Positions 8,292-56,411 of a stretch of 64,000 nucleotides of DNA are shown here, in pieces. Within the stretch, counting starts at the first letter, position 1; each line of letters opens with the position of its first letter. The notes below the pieces were generated by a model. The model was not told the DNA's origin. It ran no database searches and was given only the letters and a program-made list of their open reading frames with translations. The stretch covers positions 11,502-75,501 of the forward strand of contig CALXVS010000001.1 in assembly GCA_944392145.1 (NCBI GenBank), written 5' to 3'. A program made the position numbers and the translations under genes. Source of the DNA: an uncultured Alphaproteobacteria bacterium (GTDB lineage: Bacteria; Pseudomonadota; Alphaproteobacteria; CAAHEQ01; UBA3637).

Positions 8292-8368
8292 GTATCACTC
8301 CTAAAAAAAACGCAAAAGTTTAAAAACATAAGGTTATGTTAAAACGACCTTAAAAAAAAATCAAGGAT

Positions 8369-8620
8369 TTATTCGGTAATCCCCAATAATTTTTTATATG
8401 AATCACGTAAAAACTCGGACTCGGCCCGATCCGCCGGGGTCATTTTCCTTAACCGCAAAATTTGCCGCATCGTTTTGGTGTCAAAGCCGTTTCCTTTTGC
8501 CTCGGCAAAAATCTCTCGCACATCTGCACCCAATTCACGACGTTCTTCTTCAAGCCGTTCAATCCGTTCAATATAGCTTTGCAGTTTTTGGCTTTCGCCG
8601 GGCTGTTGCATATCACTCAT
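8369..8620 (-). CDS. gapR: GapR-like nucleoid-associated protein (DUF2312/UPF0335)
   Basis: 83 aa. LQSYIERIERLEEERRELGADVREIFAEAKGNGFDTKTMRQILRLRKM is the conserved DUF2312 core as I remember it from Caulobacter GapR. Confidence 0.8.
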   Translation of the reverse strand: MSDMQQPGESQKLQSYIERIERLEEERRELGADVREIFAEAKGNGFDTKTMRQILRLRKMTPADRAESEFLRDSYKKLLGITE

Positions 8621-9931: not shown

Positions 9932-10001
9932 GCTGATCGGCGGGAATAGTTTTATGGGAGACACCCGCCCCAAGGCAAAAGAACCCGATTTATTTGTGCC
10001 T

Positions 10002-12952: not shown

Positions 12953-13675
12953 CTATCGACCATTGCCGGCGGCTTTTTGAAGCATTGCCGCCTTTGACGG
13001 ATCACGCGTTACCTCATAAGCCTTTTTAAACTCCTCGGCCTGAATCATCCGAATACCGGCACTGTCTTTAATTAAATAAGCGCCCTTTTTATCCGCAATT
13101 TGCGGAGAACCCGTCGGTCCGCGGAATTTCGTTCCGGCAGGGACAAATACCGCCGAAACAGCTTCTTTATTTTTAACATAAGAACCTGCCTTACCCGGTT
13201 TGAAATCCTCTTTTTTCGGGGCATCCTTTAATCCCGCGGCAAAAGATAAATCCGAATCCCACAAATCTGCTTTACCCCCATCGTTGACAACATGTTTAGA
13301 CAAGTAATCCACAAAAGCAGCAACCTCTTTAGTATCTTTCAACGCGTCCGGATGTTCTTTCAAATAAGCATCTATTTTTTCTTTCCGCCCCGGTGCATCA
13401 TAACAAATCAGCACACCTTCGTTTTTCTTTAAAACCTGTTTTGAACCGTCTTTGGGGTTTTGAAAGGCGAACCCGTCTACTTCTTCTTCATACGGACCAT
13501 TTGGTCCCCATTCGCCACGCATATGTTTTTCGGCACCCTGAAATCCATAAACGGGAATAATAATCCGTTTCATATCCGACGGTACGGCCTCAATCGCTTT
13601 ACCCTTTTCAAATAAAACCTCGGCATCTTTTCCGCTTAATTCACCGGCAGCGGCACTTAATGTTTCTTTCATCAT
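12953..13675 (-). CDS. Hypothetical protein (no signal peptide, Lys/Asp/Glu-rich), no family recognised
   Basis: 240-aa ORF with clean coding appearance. I recognise no motif. Confidence 0.5.
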   Translation of the reverse strand: MMKETLSAAAGELSGKDAEVLFEKGKAIEAVPSDMKRIIIPVYGFQGAEKHMRGEWGPNGPYEEEVDGFAFQNPKDGSKQVLKKNEGVLICYDAPGRKEKIDAYLKEHPDALKDTKEVAAFVDYLSKHVVNDGGKADLWDSDLSFAAGLKDAPKKEDFKPGKAGSYVKNKEAVSAVFVPAGTKFRGPTGSPQIADKKGAYLIKDSAGIRMIQAEEFKKAYEVTRDPSKAAMLQKAAGNGR

Positions 13676-14091
13676 GGTTCTCTCCTTTTTACGTTAAACG
13701 CCATAAAGTTTATCTGTTACGGTTTTATTTTAGCATTGTTTTTGTAAAAAGTATACAAAAAAAGGTTTCCAAAAAAACGAATCGCTTTTAAAAAATTAAA
13801 TACCGTCCCCAAAGAGCCCCCTCCCTGTTTTAAAAATTTTTTTATAAAATATATTACAGAAAAATACCTGCAAAATTTGTTGTTTTCATAAAATTTGACT
13901 GACTTTCGGCTTCTGTCTAAAAAAATTTTTTTAAAATTTGTTTTTATATTTTTTTAAAAATCACCTTGATTTATTTAAAAAAAGTCTTATTTTAAAAAGA
14001 AAAGAACCAGAAGGGGTGGGCGAATCCTTATTTGGTATATTTAAAAAAAGATTTTTTAATTATTCTTTAACTTTTACATAAGGAGCGAAAC

Positions 14092-14325
14092 ATGACTAAG
14101 TCAATTTTTACGCCGGAATATCAATTATTTTTAAAACTGCTGTTGCAAGGCCGCAAAAAAGCAGGCATGACACAAGTTCAGTTGGCAGCACAGCTGAAAA
14201 AACCTCAATCGTTTGTTTGCAAGTTTGAAAAAGGTGAAAGACGATTGGATATCATTGAATTTTTGGAAATTGCGCGCATCTTAAATATTGATGCGGGTGA
14301 AATAATTCAACGTCTGCAAAAATAA
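14092..14325 (+). CDS. XRE-family helix-turn-helix transcriptional regulator
   Basis: 77 aa. GMTQVQLAAQLKKPQSFVCKFEKGERRLDIIEFLEIARIL is a classic HTH_3/Cro-C1 pattern. SD AAGGAG lies upstream. Confidence 0.8.
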   Translation: MTKSIFTPEYQLFLKLLLQGRKKAGMTQVQLAAQLKKPQSFVCKFEKGERRLDIIEFLEIARILNIDAGEIIQRLQK

Positions 14326-14327
14326 GG

Positions 14328-15014
14328 CTATTTGACCGAATCGCTTTCTTTCAAAACATACCCACGGCCCCAAACCGTGTGTATGTAATGTTGGCCGCCG
14401 GAAAGTTTTTCAATTTTGCGGCGGATTTTGCACAAAAAAACATCAATAATTTTCATTTCGGGCTCATCAATTCCCCCGTAAAGGTGGTTTAAAATCTGTT
14501 CTTTGCTTAAAACCCCCCCCTTACGCAAAGCCAGCAGTTCCATCAAAGCATATTCTTTGGCGGTTAAAGCAAGTTTTTGCCCCAAAACAGTTACGTTTTT
14601 TTGACTGAAATTGATTTCAAGCGCTCCGATTCGCACAACCGAATCGGGGTGTCCTTTAAATCGCCGCACAACGGCATCCACACGCGCTGTCAGCTCCCTC
14701 GGATCAAATGGAAAGATTAAATAATCATCTGCACCGGCATCAAAACACCGTAGTTTTTCTTCTAAATCATTATGGGTCGCCAACACAACCAACGGTACCG
14801 TTAAAGGCACCTGGCGAAGCGTTTTAATCATGTCGGAACAGATATCCCTCTCAAACAACGGTGACACAATAATTAAATCATAATCGTAAATACGGGCCAA
14901 ATCAACAGCTTCCGGAATACAGTGAACCACATCAACCATCATTGCACGTCCTTTAAGTAAAACCGACGCTGTTGTTATCAGTGGCCGATCCGATTCAACA
15001 GATAGAATACGCAT
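14328..15014 (-). CDS. CtrA-like OmpR-family response regulator with degenerate receiver domain
   Basis: 228 aa from MRILSVESD. It is colinear with Caulobacter CtrA as I remember it (DLARIYDYDLIIV..., GADDY, KEYALMELLALRKG, LNHLYGGIDEPEMKIIDVFLCKIRRKI, HTVWGRGYVL). However, the D51 position is Ser and the KPF Lys is Phe. Confidence 0.8.
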   Translation of the reverse strand: MRILSVESDRPLITTASVLLKGRAMMVDVVHCIPEAVDLARIYDYDLIIVSPLFERDICSDMIKTLRQVPLTVPLVVLATHNDLEEKLRCFDAGADDYLIFPFDPRELTARVDAVVRRFKGHPDSVVRIGALEINFSQKNVTVLGQKLALTAKEYALMELLALRKGGVLSKEQILNHLYGGIDEPEMKIIDVFLCKIRRKIEKLSGGQHYIHTVWGRGYVLKESDSVK

Positions 15015-15077
15015 GCTGTTTCCCCTTGCAATCAATGAAAGATAATTAAAAATATCTTAATAAACAGGATAAGGCAA

Positions 15078-15122
15078 GAAAAAACGGCCCTTTCTTAAAA
15101 AAAAGAAAGAACCGTTTTTTTT
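15078..15122 (-). terminator. Intrinsic terminator downstream of ileS (bidirectional shape)
   Basis: acggccctttctt-aaaaaaaa-gaaagaaccgt imperfect stem flanked by an A-run and a T-run. Confidence 0.6.
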
Positions 15123-15135
15123 AAACAACGCCGCG

Positions 15136-18100
15136 TTATACCCGAATTGAGAATGACACCTGCCCTTCACCCAATTCTTCGGTATGATCGGCCGCAGACA
15201 ACATTTGAATTCGTGTCAAAGTCAATGCCAACACCTGATCTTGAATATAAGCGGCATGATCGGCCAATGCTTCGGCCGCCAAAGGTGAGTCAACGGCATA
15301 GTCAACAAAAATCCGATCCGATATGTTCAAATTCTTTTCTTTACGCAATGCTTGCACCATGCGAACAAAATCACGGGCAATCCCTTCTTTTTCAAGAGTC
15401 GGATCCACACGTGTATCCAACTGCACCACGGCTGTATTATCCGGCAATGCCGCACCGTTTACCCCCTCTTTTAAAATCAGGCGCAACTCAAATTCTTCGG
15501 CACTTAAAACCTGTCCGGCAATATCAAGCTGACCATCCGGCAATAACCGCCATTCATTCGCTTTACCGGCGGCCATAATGTCTTTCATAAATCGTCCTAA
15601 CCGCTTGCCGATCAAGGGCGTTTTTAAATACAAATACGTATCCGCAACCGATGCCACGTCTTGTGTTAAAACAACGTCTTTAACATTTACCTCATCTTTC
15701 AGCAATTCCGTATAAACCGCTAAGTTCGGTGCTCTTTTACCCGCAACCGTCATACAAAACAACGGCAATCGGTTCCGTAACCGGTGTTCCTCACGAATCG
15801 CTTTAGCCGTTGAAGAAACCTGACGAATCAAATCCATATCGGCCATCAATTCAGAGGCATCCGCAAAAATTGTTTCGTCCGGGTAATCCGTTAAATGAAC
15901 CGATTCTTCCCCTGTCAAAGAGCGATAGACAAATTCGCTGAACATCGGCATCAAGGGGGCCATCAATTGTGCCACTGTGACCAAAACGGTATAAAGCACA
16001 TCAAAGGCTTCCTGCTGTGTTCCATCCCAAAACCGCGCCCGTGACCGACGAATATACCAATTGTTTAAAATATCCAAAAATTCGGCACAGGAGGCACAGG
16101 CCTGCGGCATATCATACGCCGTTAAATCCGCTTTGACAGAAATAATTAACTGCCTTAATTTTGATAAAATATATTGATCCAATACATTTTCGGCCCGAAC
16201 ACAACGATTCGCTTTTATGCTTTCCGCATTTGCATATAAACAAAAGAAATAAAAGGCATTCCAAAACGGCATCAACGCTTTACGGGCAGCCTTGGCGACT
16301 TCTTTCCCCTCTTTATCAACGGCAACCGTGCCGCCTTTAACAGCAGATGAAGAAATCAAAAACCAGCGCAAGGCATCTGATCCCATGGTTTCCAAAACCG
16401 CATACGGATCCGGATAGTTTTTCAGCTTTTTGGACAACTTGACTCCCCCCTCGGCCATCAACAGCCCCGTTGCCAAACAGGTTTTATACGCCGGTTTATG
16501 ATGCAAAGCCGCCCCTAACACATGCAATGAATAAAACCACCCGCGCGTTTGATCAATTCCTTCTACAATAAAATCGGCCGGAAAATGCGATTCAAACCAT
16601 TCTTTGCGCTCAAAGGGATAATGCACCTGGCCTTCGGGCATAGAACCTGATTCAAACCAGCAATCCAAGACATCCGATACCCGCCGCATCATGGTTTGAC
16701 CGCTGGGATCATCCGGATTAGGATACACCACATCATCAATCATCGGGCGGTGTAAATCCGTCACGTCAAAGCCCGTTTTTTCCTTAATTTCGGCAAGAGA
16801 GCCAAACACATCAATCCGTGGGAATTTCGGGTTATCCGACTTCCAAACAGGCAAAGGCGCCCCCCAAAACCGGTTACGCGAAATGGACCAATCCGGGGCT
16901 GTTTCAAGTCCTTTACCAAAACGCCCCTCTTTAATATGTTCAGGTGTCCAGGTAATTTGCTGATTTAAAGCAATCAATTCGTCCTTAAAGGCTGTAACAC
17001 GCACAAACCAACCGGACATTGCCTTGTAAATCAAGGGCGTATCCGTCCGCCAGCAATACGGATAACTGTGGACGATTTGCTCTTTCTTCACAAGCTTACG
17101 GTTTTGCTTCAACCACACCATAATCGGCTCGTTCGTCTCAAACACCTGCATCCCCTGATAATCGGGAACATCGGACGTAAAACATCCGGCTTCATCTACC
17201 GGACAAACGACCGGAAAAGCCGGATCCAATGCCCGACACACCTCAAAGTCATCCTGACCGAATCCCGGCGCAATATGCACCAATCCTGTTCCATCCTCAA
17301 CCGACACAAAGGTGCCCGATAAAACCTTAAAACATCCCTTGTCTTTCATATGACTGAAATACGGGAACATTGATTCATAAGACAAACCAACCAACTCGGC
17401 TCCTTTTAAAGTGCCGACCCGTGTGGCATTTTGAAGCTGTTGTTTATACCGGGGCAACAACGCCTCGGCCAAAACGTATTTTTCATCCCCTTCCTGCATC
17501 ACGGCATAATCAATATCTTGACCGACCGCAATCATTAAATTTGACGGTAACGTCCACGGTGTTGTTGTCCAAACCAATAAATTCAAACCGTTTTCTAACC
17601 GAAACAAAACCGTGATAGCCGTATCGGTTTTATCACGATAAGCCTGATTCACTTCAAAATTTGATACCGGTGTTTGTGCGGCCCAAGAATATGGTTGAAC
17701 GCGATAATCCTCATAAATCAATCCTTTGTCATACAAACATTTAAAGTTGTGAATGACCGATTCCATAAAGGGTAAATCCATCGTCTTGTAATCATGGGAA
17801 AAGTCAACCCAACGACCGATTCGGCGGAACATATCCGTCCAAATACCGGCATATTTCAACACATCTTTGCGGCAAAAAGCATTAAATTTTTCAATGCCGA
17901 ATGCTTCAATTGCTTTACGTCCCGATACACCCAGCTCTTTTTCGGCAGCCATTTCGGCCGGCAGCCCATGGCAATCCCATCCCAATCGCCGTTCAACACG
18001 CTTACCCGACATGGTTTGAAACCGTGCAATCGTGTCCTTAACATACGAAATCATGATATGGCCGTAATGCGGCAACCCGTTGGCAAACGGCGGACCGTCA

Positions 18101-18249
18101 TAAAAAACAAATTCTTCGGCCGTCCGTCTGTTTTCAACGGAACGTTCAAATGTTTTTTGTTCTTCCCAAGAACGAATAACCTCATGCTCCATCTGTGGGA
18201 AATCAATTTTAGCCTGTAAATCCGGGTAATGCTTCACTGTATTTTTCAT
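15136..18249 (-). CDS. ileS: Isoleucine--tRNA ligase, type 2 (eukaryote-like) form
   Basis: 1037 aa with HIGH-type motif PHYGHI, KMSKS-type KLSKKLKN and the CP1 editing insert. The N-terminus (FPQMEHEVIRSWEEQKTFERS) and the C-terminus without a Zn-finger tail look like the type 2 class. Confidence 0.92.
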   Translation of the reverse strand: MKNTVKHYPDLQAKIDFPQMEHEVIRSWEEQKTFERSVENRRTAEEFVFYDGPPFANGLPHYGHIMISYVKDTIARFQTMSGKRVERRLGWDCHGLPAEMAAEKELGVSGRKAIEAFGIEKFNAFCRKDVLKYAGIWTDMFRRIGRWVDFSHDYKTMDLPFMESVIHNFKCLYDKGLIYEDYRVQPYSWAAQTPVSNFEVNQAYRDKTDTAITVLFRLENGLNLLVWTTTPWTLPSNLMIAVGQDIDYAVMQEGDEKYVLAEALLPRYKQQLQNATRVGTLKGAELVGLSYESMFPYFSHMKDKGCFKVLSGTFVSVEDGTGLVHIAPGFGQDDFEVCRALDPAFPVVCPVDEAGCFTSDVPDYQGMQVFETNEPIMVWLKQNRKLVKKEQIVHSYPYCWRTDTPLIYKAMSGWFVRVTAFKDELIALNQQITWTPEHIKEGRFGKGLETAPDWSISRNRFWGAPLPVWKSDNPKFPRIDVFGSLAEIKEKTGFDVTDLHRPMIDDVVYPNPDDPSGQTMMRRVSDVLDCWFESGSMPEGQVHYPFERKEWFESHFPADFIVEGIDQTRGWFYSLHVLGAALHHKPAYKTCLATGLLMAEGGVKLSKKLKNYPDPYAVLETMGSDALRWFLISSSAVKGGTVAVDKEGKEVAKAARKALMPFWNAFYFFCLYANAESIKANRCVRAENVLDQYILSKLRQLIISVKADLTAYDMPQACASCAEFLDILNNWYIRRSRARFWDGTQQEAFDVLYTVLVTVAQLMAPLMPMFSEFVYRSLTGEESVHLTDYPDETIFADASELMADMDLIRQVSSTAKAIREEHRLRNRLPLFCMTVAGKRAPNLAVYTELLKDEVNVKDVVLTQDVASVADTYLYLKTPLIGKRLGRFMKDIMAAGKANEWRLLPDGQLDIAGQVLSAEEFELRLILKEGVNGAALPDNTAVVQLDTRVDPTLEKEGIARDFVRMVQALRKEKNLNISDRIFVDYAVDSPLAAEALADHAAYIQDQVLALTLTRIQMLSAADHTEELGEGQVSFSIRV

Positions 18250-22183: not shown

Positions 22184-24157
22184 TTATTCGTTAAATTTAA
22201 GGCATACAAGCGTCAAATCATCTGTCGGAGGGGGTGGTGAAACCGTAAAAAAGCGTTTAACAACATCATCTAAAAACCACCGAACAGAAGAAGAAACCAA
22301 CTTAAACGACGGTCGCATCATTCGCACAAACCAAGCATAAGACAACCGCCGTCCCGAACGGGTTTTTCCTTCAATCGCTGCATCACTGAACAAAATCAAA
22401 AAATCACCCGGCTGAAAAGCATGTGTTTGATTTTCATAAACAGGATGCGTTTGAATCCCCAACGGAACCCCGCGCGCCTTTAAATAAACCTCCCGCCCCT
22501 GATGCATCAAAATCGGCGGCACCGATCCGGCCCCGGCATACGTGATCGTTTGTGCGGCAACATCAATCACCCCGCAAAAAAATGTCGTGAACTGCCCGCG
22601 CGGCAACAAATCATACAATCGTTCATTTAAAAACCGCAGCAACTCGGCAGGATCAGACGCTAAAGATATATCAATTCCTTTTGTTAAAGTATGCAGTCGG
22701 AACGTATTTAATGCGGCGGACATACCATGTCCGGAAAAATCACTGACATAAAAACAAAGGCGATTCTTGGAAAGTTTAAAAATTTGCCAAAAATCACCTC
22801 CCAAAACGGATGATGGCACAAAATAATGTGCGATTTCAAGATGATATTCTTTTTTTAATGCATTTAAAAAAGGAACACTCGGTAATAACCCGACTTGCAT
22901 TTGTTGGGCAGCATATTGTTCATTTTTAATGTTGCTTAACTGTGTTTGCAGGTTTTTAATCAACAATTTATTTTGCAAATGAACACCGACACGAGTCAAA
23001 AATTCGGCCGGCACAATCGGTTTTTCAATAAAATCCACCGCACCGGCAATCAACACCTCGCGCCGAACACGCGGTGCCGCGGCCGGAATTTTTGCCAAAA
23101 CGGGAATATCGGTGCCGTCCGGATCCGCTTTTAAATGTTCCAGTAAGCGCACCCCGGGATCCTCGGTTTTTAATACATCCAAAATAACTAAATCCGGATT
23201 AAATTGCAAAATATCTCGGACTTTTGCAAAATCCGTATCCCCTGTTTTGATAAACGTCACCCCCATGGATTTTAACAACTGCGTGACAAGCTGCACCCGA
23301 ACGGGATTTTTTTTGGCAACAAAAACACGGGCCCTTGAAAAATCCGGTCGGTGCGGCATCAGATACGGTTTACCACCGGACGTTAAAAAAGAACGCTTGT
23401 CCGTGCGTCGGAAAGACAGTGTGATTTCCCGACCGTAATCCGAAACCGTACAGGCATCCGCTACGTCGGCAATGATTTTAAGCCCGCGCCCCGAGGCCGC
23501 ATAAAGTTCCGACCGTGCCCGTGCCGTGGGGGTGACACAATAACCGACTCCTTCGTCTTGAATTTTAATTTCCAACAAATTGTCGGTCCATTGGGCACGA
23601 ATGCGTACAGACTTTTGCGCGAACGTTGGGTCGTTCAACCGAACTGTCAGCATACGGGCATATTTAAAAAAATGCTTACCATCCCGTCTGAGTGAACTGG
23701 ACAATCGCAAATTTCCGTGAATGAGTGCATTAACAAGCGATTCATGCACAACCATACGAATGGCATCAAAATCCGCCGCCGAAAAATTCAACCGATCGGC
23801 CAATGCACGTGTAAAAATAAAGGCAATATCGGCCGTATAAAGTGCTTGCCCCGTTAATAATAAACTTAAAGATGGTACCAGTGCCGCCCGGCGTTCATTT
23901 TGAAAAAAACACGCCACGGATGCATCCGATGCCATTGTGTCAATAACACCTTTTAACGGTAAACGTAACTGTTCGCAAAGACCTTCCTGATCCGTCCGTG
24001 CCGTTAACGCATAACAATTTTTCGGCCACGGTCGGGGCGGACGCATTGTCCACACGGGATTATCACGACTTGGCCACGGAATCAAGCGAAACCGGTTTGC
24101 AAGCTGAATCAACCGAATATCCGACGGATAATCGGTCGTAATATAATATCGGCGCAT
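22184..24157 (-). CDS. Multidomain signalling protein: N-terminal unknown region + RsbW/SpoIIAB-like HATPase + receiver (REC) + PP2C/SpoIIE phosphatase
   Basis: 657 aa. VHESLVNALIHGN...GRGLKII suggests an anti-sigma-type Ser kinase fold. RVFVAKKNP...DLVILDV...GAVDFIEKPI is a receiver with Asp and Lys present. GGDFWQIF...FYVSDFSGHGMSAA...LILFSDA is a PP2C/SpoIIE domain. Confidence 0.8.
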   Translation of the reverse strand: MRRYYITTDYPSDIRLIQLANRFRLIPWPSRDNPVWTMRPPRPWPKNCYALTARTDQEGLCEQLRLPLKGVIDTMASDASVACFFQNERRAALVPSLSLLLTGQALYTADIAFIFTRALADRLNFSAADFDAIRMVVHESLVNALIHGNLRLSSSLRRDGKHFFKYARMLTVRLNDPTFAQKSVRIRAQWTDNLLEIKIQDEGVGYCVTPTARARSELYAASGRGLKIIADVADACTVSDYGREITLSFRRTDKRSFLTSGGKPYLMPHRPDFSRARVFVAKKNPVRVQLVTQLLKSMGVTFIKTGDTDFAKVRDILQFNPDLVILDVLKTEDPGVRLLEHLKADPDGTDIPVLAKIPAAAPRVRREVLIAGAVDFIEKPIVPAEFLTRVGVHLQNKLLIKNLQTQLSNIKNEQYAAQQMQVGLLPSVPFLNALKKEYHLEIAHYFVPSSVLGGDFWQIFKLSKNRLCFYVSDFSGHGMSAALNTFRLHTLTKGIDISLASDPAELLRFLNERLYDLLPRGQFTTFFCGVIDVAAQTITYAGAGSVPPILMHQGREVYLKARGVPLGIQTHPVYENQTHAFQPGDFLILFSDAAIEGKTRSGRRLSYAWFVRMMRPSFKLVSSSVRWFLDDVVKRFFTVSPPPPTDDLTLVCLKFNE

Positions 24158-26586: not shown

Positions 26587-26661
26587 TTATTTTGACTTTC
26601 GCGCTGATTTTCCCTATTCTTATAATGAAAAGCAGTTTAACTTTTTTTTAAAGGAAAAGCA

Positions 26662-51436: not shown

Positions 51437-53866
51437 TTACTTTACAACAAGGCTGATCAATTTTTTCGGCACCACAATTGTTTTCACAATTTCTTTACCG
51501 TCTGTAAACGCTTGAACCGTCGGCAGGGCAAGGGCCATTTGTTTTAACGTTTCCTGATCCGTTTCGGGGGCTACGTTCAATTTCCCACGCACTTTACCGT
51601 TCACCTGAACCACCAACGTGATTTCATCACGCACCAAAGCACCTTCATCCACCACGGGCCATGATTGTTTAAAGACCGATTCAGTGTGTCCCATACGTTC
51701 CCATAATTCTTCACTTAAATGCGGTGCAAAGGGGGCTAACAACACAATATATGTATTTAAACACGCTTTTAAAAAGGATTTATTGACAGGTCCTTGCATA
51801 TATTTTACCAAGGCATTTAAATATTCCATCAATCGGGCAATGGACGTGTTAAATTGAAATAAATCCACATCCCGCGTGATTGATTTAACAGACGTGTTCC
51901 GCACAAAATCCAATTCCTTTTCTGCGGCACCCATATCCTGATGCGCCTCGGACAAAGTATCGTATTTATCAAACAACCCTTCAATCCGTTTGACAAACCG
52001 CGCCATCGCTTCAATCCCCGTATCACTCCACGGACCACCGTCGGTATAGGAAAAAGCAAATTCCAAATACATGCGCATCACATCCGATCCCATTTTTTGA
52101 ATATACGGATCCGGGGTAATGGTATTCCCTTTTGATTTAGACATTTTTTGCCCGTCCGGTCCCAAAATCATACCTTGATGCACCAAGGACTTAAACGGTT
52201 CGTCAAAATTCAAATATCCCATATCGCGCAACGCTTTTGTGATAAACCGCGCATAAAGCAGATGCATGGTGGCATGTTCTTGACCACCGACATATTTGTC
52301 AACCGGCAATAATTTATTGATTTTATCAGAATCAAATGCGGCGGTTTTATTTTTATTATCGGGAAACCGCAAAAAATACCAACTGGAATCCACAAACGTA
52401 TCCATTGTATCCGGATCACGCCGCGCCGCTTTGCCGCATTTGGGACAGGTCACATTCATAAACGCGGCACACCGTGCCAAAGGTGACTCACCGTCGGGAC
52501 GAAATTCCACATCATAGGGCAATTTAACGGGCAACGCCTCCTCGGGCACCGGCACAACACCGCAATGCGGGCAATGAATTACCGGTATCGGTGCCCCCCA
52601 ATACCGCTGCCGTGAAATCAACCAATCCCGTAACCGGAACATGGTTGTTAACTCCCCTTTCCCTTCGGTCGCTAACTTGGCCACAATAGCCGGAATCGCC
52701 TCTTCGGTTGTCATTCCCGTAAATTCCGCACTGTTAATCAATTGACCATGTTCACAAAACGGCAACGGCTGTTCTTTCCCGTTTTTATCAACAATAACGC
52801 GTGTTATCGGCAATCCGTATTTGGTTGCAAAATCAAAATCACGTTCGTCATGGGCTGGAACCGCCATCACAAAACCGGTGCCATACGTAGCAATCACATA
52901 ATCAGCCACCCAGACCGGCACTTTTTTACCGTCAACGGGATTGATTGCATAAGAACCCGTAAAAACCCCCGTGCGTTCCCGTTCGGTTGACATACGGTCA
53001 ATTTCGGCAACCTTGGCCGCTTGTGTTACATACGCGTCAACCGCTGCTTTCTGTTCGGGCGTTGTTAAACGCGCTACCGCCTCATGCTCCGGCGCAATCA
53101 CGACATAAGACAGCCCGTATAACGTATCGGCACGTGTGGTAAAAGCCTGCAACTTCATACCGTTATCAATATCAAATGAAATCAGAGCTCCCGTTGATTT
53201 TCCGATCCAATTTTTTTGGATTTTTTTGGTTTTTTCGGGCCAATCCAACGCATCAATGTCTTTTAACAACTCATCGGCATAATCCGTGATTTTAAAAAAC
53301 CATTGTTTCATTTTACGTTGCGTAACTTCAGACTTGCACCGTTCGCAATGCCCGTCTATTACCTGCTCATTGGCTAAAACGGTTTGACAACTGGGACACC
53401 AATTGACCGGCGCCTCTTTTTGATAGGCCAACCCTTTTTCATACAACTTTAAAAACAACCATTGCGTCCATTTATAATAATCCTCGTCGCACGTGCTTAA
53501 AAAGTAATTCAGGTCATAGCTGCCCCCCAACTGTTGATATTGTTCCAACATGGTTCTGATACTGGCATTGGTGGAATCTTGCGGATGCGTGCCGGTTTTA
53601 ATCGCATAGTTTTCCGCCGGCAACCCGAATGCATCAAACCCTTGCGGATGAAAAACATTGTATCCCTGCATCCGTTTAAACCGCGCCCACGTATCCGTTA
53701 CACCGTAATTATACCAATGACCGCAGTGCAAACTGGCCGCCGATGGATAAGAAAACATCTCCAAACAATAAAGTTTTTTATCTGTATTTTGTTCATCAAA
53801 GCGATACAAATCCGCATCCGCCCACTTTTTTTGCCATTTCTTATCCACATCAATTGAATATGCCAT
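51437..53866 (-). CDS. leuS: Leucine--tRNA ligase
   Basis: 809 aa with a HIGH-region variant [16 protein letters not shown] and the CP1 editing domain. Confidence 0.95.
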
Positions 53867-55637: not shown

Positions 55638-56411
55638 CTATTGCGTCGTCGTTGCAATCAGGTTTTCCAACGCCTGCACCCCGCAAACGACCGGGCGCAT
55701 ACCAGCCTCAATTTGATACAAGCCCAAGGGTGAAACACGCTGAAGATTACCTTCTAAATCGGTGCAGGTATTTTCCGTAACATGTCCGTTTTCATAGGTT
55801 ACACGGGCAACCGTATTACCGTTTTGATCATATAAAAGAACCTGACCGTCTATCACCCCGTTTGTATAGGGGAGAACCGATCGCAAATTTCCCCGCGTGT
55901 CATAGCGTTTTTGAACACCGTTCCGCTGCCCGTTTTCATAGTGTTCGGTCACATGAACGTTTTGATTGTCATGATACATGACCGCCTCCCCTTCCCGCTG
56001 CCCGTTTTGATAGGTCAGTCGCATTTTAACATTGCCGTTCGGAAAATATGTTTGCACCACACCGTTGATGCGACCGTCCTGATACGGGATATCTGCCAAC
56101 AGGGAACCGCTCCTGTAAAAAAAGCGCACGGAACCGTTTAAATGATGATTGACAACGGGAAATTTCACAAAGGCGGAATGATTGTTATAAAAAAATGTTT
56201 GCTCCTTATTCTGATTTAAATCCGGTACCGGCATATTCCCCAACCATCCGGATTGTGCCAGTTCCGTTTGCACCGCCGCCAAAACCGGCCGTTGGGTCAG
56301 ATCGTAAAAAACATCCTGCCCGTAAAGAATATCATACGGAATGGCGGCCGACTGTGCCCAAGCACCAGACGCTGCCATCCCGAATAAAAAAACCGGTAAA
56401 AAGAGTTTCAT
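55638..56411 (-). CDS. Secreted MORN-variant repeat protein (YwqK-family-like)
   Basis: Signal peptide MKLFLPVFLFGMAASGAWA, then repeated units of the form Y-x-NG-x-(R/I)-x-G such as YQDGRINGVVQTYFPNGN, YQNGQREGEAVMYHDN, YENGQRNGVQKRYD. Confidence 0.7.
   Translation of the reverse strand: MKLFLPVFLFGMAASGAWAQSAAIPYDILYGQDVFYDLTQRPVLAAVQTELAQSGWLGNMPVPDLNQNKEQTFFYNNHSAFVKFPVVNHHLNGSVRFFYRSGSLLADIPYQDGRINGVVQTYFPNGNVKMRLTYQNGQREGEAVMYHDNQNVHVTEHYENGQRNGVQKRYDTRGNLRSVLPYTNGVIDGQVLLYDQNGNTVARVTYENGHVTENTCTDLEGNLQRVSPLGLYQIEAGMRPVVCGVQALENLIATTTQ

Follow-up and report, generated by a model that had tools for sequence, protein, structure and literature searches.

CtrA is a cell-cycle master response regulator that is phosphorylated on Asp51 through the CckA-ChpT relay, and this phosphorylation is regarded as the central switch by which Alphaproteobacteria control their cell cycle and motility. 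The CtrA(D51E) variant is the classic laboratory phosphomimetic in Caulobacter genetics. For their Rhodospirillales cluster, Brilli et al. 2010 (PMC2877005) reported a CckA-ChpT-CtrA relay 'missing at different degrees', with CcrM and GcrA kept, and ctrA is present in 72-82% of Rhodospirillales genomes, as against only 27-36% for chpT, cckA and divL (Tomasch et al. 2021, PMC8116508). Both studies scored gene presence and absence, and neither comments on what residue stands at the acceptor position. Among atypical OmpR-type regulators, many (HP1043, ChxR and GlnR) are constitutive dimers, assembled mostly via α4-β5-α5, and there are documented cases of pseudo-receivers regulated indirectly, by way of partner proteins (PMC12632262); this 2025 review of pseudo-receivers does not mention CtrA.

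The locus described here lies in a 64,000-nucleotide stretch of DNA, referred to as the window, and its ctrA belongs to an uncultured alphaproteobacterial lineage, probably from the animal gut. The gene and its two domains are as follows.

14328..15014, minus strand: ctrA-like gene, 228 aa plus a TAG stop (open reading frame, Pfam and NCBIfam)
14649..15014, minus strand: pseudo-receiver domain, residues 1-122, with S8, S51, A79 and F101 in an intact (βα)5 fold
14331..14648, minus strand: linker and winged-helix DNA-binding domain, residues 123-228 (Trans_reg_C, 76 bits)

Receiver and DNA-binding domain of the window CtrA

The gene occupies the coordinates given in the first-pass annotation, which did not state the strand. 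Translation starts at the ATG at 15014 (MRILSVESD), which is preceded by an AAGGGGA ribosome-binding site. A TTG start at 15035 is disfavoured by this site and by the N-termini of the homologues, all of which begin MRIL or MRVL. Pfam recognises Response_reg (PF00072) at residues 3-112 with 44.7 bits and Trans_reg_C (PF00486) at residues 145-221 with 76 bits, both above the cut-offs, and the receiver fold combined with a C-terminal winged helix, seen in Pfam and in an AlphaFold model, places the product in the OmpR/PhoB family. The proposed membership of the CtrA family was borne out, as CtrA is the top NCBIfam family for the protein (256.8 bits, compared with 125.7 for the next, PmrA). The score does not reach the 350-bit equivalog cut-off of the CtrA model NF045991. 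Other members of the clade described below score in the same range (246-296 over the clade), while the model gives 327 bits to a Gluconobacter CtrA with Glu51, 373 to the canonical P0004 protein and 421 to the Brucella protein. A score below the cut-off is not diagnostic, because the canonical CtrA of the related metagenome-assembled genome (MAG) RGIG1600 also falls short (316 bits). Each half of the window protein matches CtrA best on its own, the receiver with 92.3 bits (63.9 for the next family) and the DNA-binding domain with 150 bits (70 for the next family), indicating that the receiver derives from a CtrA receiver and that no domain swap has occurred. The DNA-binding domain (residues 123-228) shares a mean identity of 64-72%, and a maximum of 74-81%, with those of canonical CtrAs, and its NHLYGGxDEPExKIIDVFxCKxRxK and TVWGRGY motifs are invariant when aligned with the CtrAs of Brucella and Caulobacter and with gut CtrAs, in agreement with the strong conservation noted at first reading.

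The catalytic residues were mapped in three ways, by HMMER alignment to PmrA/BasR structures, by MAFFT alignments that took in canonical CtrAs including those of Brucella and Caulobacter, and on the AlphaFold model, and the three are in agreement. The acidic pair Glu7-Asp8 is Glu7-Ser8 in the window protein, such that the Mg-binding aspartate is replaced by serine; the acceptor position at the end of strand β3 is Ser51; the Ser/Thr position at the end of β4 is Ala79 instead of Ser79, within 'LATH'; and Lys101, after β5, is replaced by Phe. In addition, the β3-α3 loop, LPDMxG in canonical proteins, reads FERDIC. The first-pass annotation had listed Ser51, ESD for EDD, LATH and Phe for the Lys of KPF from inspection of the sequence, and each was upheld by the formal alignment it called for and by the model, no aspartate being placed in the acceptor column. 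Four of the five canonical phosphotransfer residues are thus replaced, and the window protein does not have the phosphorylatable active site of CtrA (Asp51, acidic pair, Ser/Thr and Lys). As the receiver is still recognised by Pfam and in the structure model while four catalytic residues are gone, the domain is a pseudo-receiver as defined in PMC12632262.

The AlphaFold model (pLDDT 86.7) contains a complete (βα)5 receiver, with strands at residues 2-7, 26-30, 47-51, 75-79 and 97-100 and helices at 10-22, 33-42, 58-68, 84-92 and 105-119, followed by the winged helix. In a fold search the receiver matched that of Brucella CtrA (4qpj_C) with a TM score of 0.88. The domain arrangement resembles those of DNA-bound PmrA (4s04_A, TM 0.84) and CosR (TM 0.79), a likeness between model and structures that may be taken as a hint and no more.

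A search of 5.8 billion proteins returned a near-identical allele (P0001) and two more distant relatives, P0002 (65% identical) and P0003 (57%); from about 54% identity downwards the matches were almost all canonical. A further relative, P0156 (NCBI MAG GCA_965324315.1), came from a search of 1.84 billion representatives with a receiver profile. Multi-receiver proteins dominated the best-ranked matches, and the search served only to find P0156 and other CtrA-like proteins without the aspartate. In a neighbour-joining tree the window protein, P0002, P0003 and P0156 form one clade with long branches. Residues 8, 51, 79 and 101 are S/S/A/F in the window protein, S/S/E/C in P0002, T/G/G/Q in P0003 and R/N/S/Y in P0156. 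As to the same Asp-to-Ser change, for which a survey had been suggested, Ser51 recurs in P0002, P0003 has Gly and P0156 has Asn. That the catalytic residues differ from lineage to lineage is the pattern expected once these positions have escaped selection. Ser51 was considered as a substitute phosphorylation site and ruled out by the variation at this position across the clade.

The remainder of the receiver is constrained. There are no indels in the clade receivers and the reading frame is whole in all four lineages. Of 66 positions with at least 90% conservation among canonical CtrA receivers, they keep 35-37. Strands β1, β3 (YDYDxI) and β5 (GADD) and helix α5 (PFDxRELxARxxAxxRR) are retained. 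Losses cluster in the active site, the β3-α3 loop, the N-terminus of α2, α4 and α1, the last being the main docking helix of receivers for kinases and phosphotransferases. Several substitutions are common to the clade: D35E at the N-terminus of α2, and V88L and G90C in α4, are present in all four members, and K86E, also in α4, in three of them. A search of genome and metagenome collections with the clade-specific pattern EKLxCFxxGADD recovered only unrelated OmpR-family regulators (27-33% identity) and no new clade members, showing that the α4 motif is not unique to pseudo-receivers.

Between species the receiver has a dN of 0.39 and a dS of about 2, giving an ω of about 0.2 or lower, which is an upper bound as dS is saturated. 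The ratio of receiver to DNA-binding-domain dN is 2.5-3.1 in the clade compared with 1.1-2.3 in the nearest canonical relatives, suggesting a modest acceleration of the receiver. The window protein and P0002 share 0.80 identity in the DNA-binding domain and 0.53 in the receiver, a much larger receiver divergence than in canonical pairs that are equally diverged in the DNA-binding domain, whose mean receiver identity is 0.77. Within the species, 12 alleles contain three variable sites (two synonymous and one nonsynonymous, A16V), too few to give power to a within-species dN/dS estimate. In the assembly collection, at least 61 sample blocks encode a protein identical to that of the window. The substitution data show that the pseudo-receiver is under purifying selection.

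Loss of Asp51 in other CtrA lineages

Catalytic positions were mapped in all fetched CtrA loci. In cultured acetic-acid bacteria (loci L003-L080) CtrA has Glu51 together with Ser, Thr or Asn at position 8, with Ser79 and Lys101 mostly kept. The genera concerned are Gluconobacter (for example G. japonicus, L004 10001-10684), Asaia (for example Asaia sp., L012), Saccharibacter, Neokomagataea, Swaminathania, Tanticharoenia, Brytella and most Bombella; Bombella pollinis (L039) has Ala51. Other Acetobacteraceae MAGs encode a canonical CtrA. A second gut-metagenome clade (P0025, P0048, P0102 and P0089; loci L168 and L169) has Glu or Ala at 51, Arg101 and a D-x-D at residues 7-9, and there is no CtrA box upstream of the gene. 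This clade nests among canonical gut CtrAs, indicating an independent loss of the acceptor aspartate. On the alignments and tree, Asp51 has been lost at least three times in CtrA, and a CtrA without its phosphosite is accordingly not a unique case but occurs in at least three lineages, the cultured acetic-acid bacteria included. The additional losses make the window protein less singular and the phenomenon more general. In the literature searched, which did not extend to subscription-only papers, no published description of a CtrA lacking Asp51 was found.

Orthology, promoter and alternative explanations

The features of the window that bear on the identity and control of the gene are listed below.

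15136..18249, minus strand: ileS, directly upstream of ctrA, the synteny anchor
15079..15118, minus strand: hairpin and T-run past the ileS stop, terminator-like by eye and not called by a consensus scan
15046..15060, unstranded: full CtrA box TTAAGATATTTTTAA, 31 nt upstream of the ctrA ATG, a putative autoregulatory site
14092..14325, plus strand: XRE-type HTH gene, 77 aa, convergent with ctrA (Pfam HTH_3, 36.9 bits)
22184-24157, minus strand: SpoIIE fusion, 657 aa, HATPase_c_2-REC-SpoIIE, syntenic in the clade and also found at L167 140-2137
8639-9175, minus strand: trcR (Pfam TrcR, 178.8 bits)
8369-8620, minus strand: gapR (GapR_DNA-bd seen in orthologous contigs)

The ileS-ctrA adjacency is present in three lineages, those of the window, P0002 (L081-L084) and P0003 (L085/L086). 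The window and the P0002 organism have in common a longer block comprising SpoIIE-REC, rsmE, an M16 peptidase gene, rnhB, ileS, ctrA, the convergent HTH gene and a 240-aa gene. At the P0156 locus ctrA directly follows an NMO gene, with SpoIIE-REC on the far side of NMO; in the window ctrA and these two genes are about 7 kb apart. The gene order is for the most part not shared with canonical ctrA loci, of which only L097 has ileS nearby, at a distance of about 4 kb. Between the window and the P0002 organism the DNA-binding domain is 80% identical, IleRS 84% and the M16 peptidase 79%. The divergence of the DNA-binding domain thus tracks that of housekeeping genes, which favours an orthologue over a paralogue. 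Neither the 64-kb window nor about 10 kb past its left edge contains a second ctrA, a HisKA kinase gene or a ChpT-type gene, and no CckA-ChpT relay was found in either. Other cell-cycle genes, dnaA, trcR and gapR, are kept in the window, and a CcrM-like methyltransferase gene (L250 15282-16409; N6_N4_Mtase plus RAMA, 524 bits on the CcrM model) lies about 5 kb past its left edge.

The box at 15046-15060 is invariant in 11 conspecific alleles. At the orthologous L081 locus a CtrA box is located at 9957-9971, 29 nt upstream of the gene, while L085 has two boxes upstream of ctrA; overall, each of the three clade lineages in which ctrA has its own promoter has a TTAA-N7-TTAA box, situated about 31-46 nt upstream of the ATG. 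The nearest canonical relatives, gut and rumen MAGs (L001, L002, L087, L088 and L098), have the box at -31 to -45. Over all loci, a box within 200 bp upstream is infrequent, being present at 16 of 113 canonical loci and 5 of 47 Glu51 loci. The promoter architecture common to the window gene and its nearest canonical relatives argues that the gene is a ctrA orthologue whose product would still recognise CtrA boxes. The hairpin past ileS gives a tentative indication of a separate ctrA promoter within 15015-15078. By count, the window shows no significant enrichment of CtrA boxes (5 where 3.9 are expected, and 4 in intergenic DNA where 2.35 are expected, P about 0.21). The counts thus give no support at the level of a regulon, and the evidence used here is confined to the conserved position of the box in the ctrA promoter. 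In the clade, the 200 bp upstream of ctrA contain no GANTC (CcrM) site. Further boxes in the window are located at 14056-14070, which precedes the ATG of the XRE-type HTH gene by 22 nt and is not conserved in L081 (P0002); at 26637-26651, a full box in the divergent promoter between a VTT-domain gene and a 154-aa gene; and at 8339-8353, between gapR and a 394-aa gene.

We consider it likely that the window gene is an orthologous CtrA that has turned into a phosphorylation-independent, autoregulated transcription factor. The first-pass annotation had left the choice between a phosphorylation-independent CtrA and a decoy paralogue; its general proposal is supported, and of its two versions synteny, the promoter box, the divergence of the DNA-binding domain and the single ctrA in the window and ~10 kb of flank favour the orthologue. 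A divergent paralogue acting as a decoy, with a canonical CtrA also encoded in the genome and modulated through competition for boxes or mixed dimers, is unlikely. It would fit the long branches of the degenerate clade, the mostly unconserved synteny with canonical ctrA loci and an equivalog score of 257 bits against a cut-off of 350, and the part of the genome covered is the 64-kb window with about 10 kb of flank. However, no second ctrA occurs in that DNA, the promoter box occupies the position seen in front of canonical ctrA in the nearest relatives, the DNA-binding domain has diverged in step with IleRS and the M16 peptidase (80% against 84% and 79%), and the canonical RGIG1600 protein is also sub-threshold at 316 bits. 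Moreover, in the cultured Gluconobacter and Asaia loci the CtrA match recovered in each is the Glu51 form.

It is also possible, although improbable, that the pseudo-receiver has gained a new input (the HTH partner, the SpoIIE/PP2C-receiver-kinase fusion, Ser/Thr phosphorylation or a small ligand) and is still switched post-translationally. Purifying selection on a receiver with clade-specific conserved substitutions (D35E, V88L and G90C throughout the clade, K86E in three members) is consistent with such an input, and partner-mediated control of pseudo-receivers has a precedent (PMC12632262). Candidate partners are encoded close by. The HTH gene is a conserved convergent neighbour that stops 2 nt from the ctrA stop codon, its L081 orthologue is 66% identical and overlaps the 3' end of ctrA, and its product may be a co-regulator. 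The 657-aa fusion gene is syntenic, and in P0156 NMO alone lies between it and ctrA. Against this, the P0003 and P0156 loci lack the HTH neighbour, and no candidate modification residue is conserved in all four members, position 51 being S/S/G/N. The remaining alternative, that ctrA is non-functional and decaying, rests on the loss of four catalytic residues from a faster-evolving receiver and is very improbable, being effectively refuted by a frame intact in four lineages, a receiver free of indels with an ω of about 0.2 or lower, an identical protein in at least 61 sample blocks, a confident AlphaFold model of an intact fold, and a conserved ribosome-binding site and promoter box.

Several other genes of these loci are worth recording. 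The receiver within the SpoIIE fusion, whose HATPase_c_2 part is an anti-sigma-type kinase domain, keeps the acceptor aspartate and the lysine and has lost the acidic pair (AKK for EDD). The P0003 organism encodes, convergent with its Gly51 ctrA, a 312-aa soluble HisKA/HATPase_c kinase without a sensor domain (L085 2171-3109, minus strand) that has weak DivJ/PdhS-like matches. The 240-aa gene (window 12953-13675, minus strand), which is lineage-specific and lies downstream of the HTH gene, shows 83% conservation in the P0002 organism and is split into two ORFs in several conspecific strains (L257, L261 and L263); it may be frameshift-prone or phase-variable. The leuS gene of the window (51437-53866, minus strand) has its closest matches, at 78% and 74%, in two alphaproteobacterial MAGs from the gut. 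Next come Clostridia and other Bacillota (about 58-63%) and not other Alphaproteobacteria, suggesting that leuS was acquired horizontally from Firmicutes in this gut lineage. A large Chlam_PMP-like autotransporter is encoded just beyond the window (L250 18304-21017), and the window encodes a MORN-repeat protein (55638-56411, minus strand); both types of protein are common in host-associated bacteria and fit the gut and rumen provenance of the nearest relatives.

The proposed phosphorylation-independent CtrA and known systems

As a proposed phosphorylation-independent orthologue, the window CtrA would not be phosphorylatable by a relay of the CckA-ChpT type. The β5-α5 face, together with the remodelled and clade-conserved α4, may form a dimerisation surface that does not depend on phosphorylation, and the resulting dimer would bind TTAA-N7-TTAA sites, that in its own promoter included. 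Indirect support for such activity comes only from the retention of β5-α5 and the conservation of α4 within the clade. With no phosphorylation in this scheme, activity would be set instead by the abundance of the protein, through autoregulation, other transcription factors and proteolysis.

A wider reading is plausible but tentative, namely that CtrA has been made phosphorylation-independent repeatedly, in at least three independent conversions (the window gut clade, the second gut clade and the Gluconobacter-Asaia-Bombella group). The conversion would be complete in the window clade, where this protein would be the sole CtrA, CckA-ChpT would be gone, the pseudo-receiver would be only a constitutive dimerisation module, and the regulon would be controlled by transcription and turnover.

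Conserved and probably autoregulated CtrA orthologues that are unable to use the Asp51 switch imply that the cell-cycle network can be rewired without it. The same loss in cultured and genetically tractable Gluconobacter and Asaia makes phosphorylation-free CtrA control, and its targets, accessible to laboratory tests. A CtrA without Asp51 also accounts for the older finding that some lineages keep ctrA without cckA or chpT, and it cautions that the homology label 'two-component response regulator CtrA' over-predicts phosphosignalling. Atypical OmpR-type regulators were already known; what appears to be new here is a CtrA orthologue that has become an atypical pseudo-receiver regulator, as one instance of a recurrent event.

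The window protein has the architecture, length and recognition motifs of the CtrAs of Caulobacter, Brucella and Sinorhizobium, and its gene likewise carries a TTAA-N7-TTAA box in its own promoter. It differs from them in the absence of Asp8, Asp51, Ser79 and Lys101, in an α1 helix and a β3-α3 loop that are not conserved, in a score below the equivalog cut-off and in a locus that shows no phosphorelay genes nearby. In common with CtrA(D51E) and the natural Glu51 and Ala51 CtrAs, the window clade has the acceptor aspartate replaced. The Glu51 proteins represent a mimic-type change and mostly keep Ser79, those of the Acetobacteraceae also keeping Lys101, whereas in the window clade a small or neutral residue at 51, combined with the loss of the lysine, provides no charge mimicry of phosphate.

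HP1043/HsrA of Helicobacter pylori and ChxR of Chlamydia trachomatis resemble the window protein in being OmpR-type orphan regulators of host-associated bacteria with receivers devoid of phosphotransfer residues, and 2hqr is among both the sequence and the fold matches of the window CtrA (25% identity in the fold search). Their relation to CtrA is, however, only at the superfamily level, and they have other DNA targets and no link to the alphaproteobacterial cell cycle. The orphan CtrAs of Rhodospirillales-type lineages provide a further parallel, as the window locus also combines a ctrA with no detected relay (in the window and ~10 kb of flank) with the retention of a ccrM-like gene, gapR, trcR and dnaA. 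Unlike those lineages as scored in PMC2877005 and PMC8116508, the window CtrA has a receiver that is itself shown to be degenerate.
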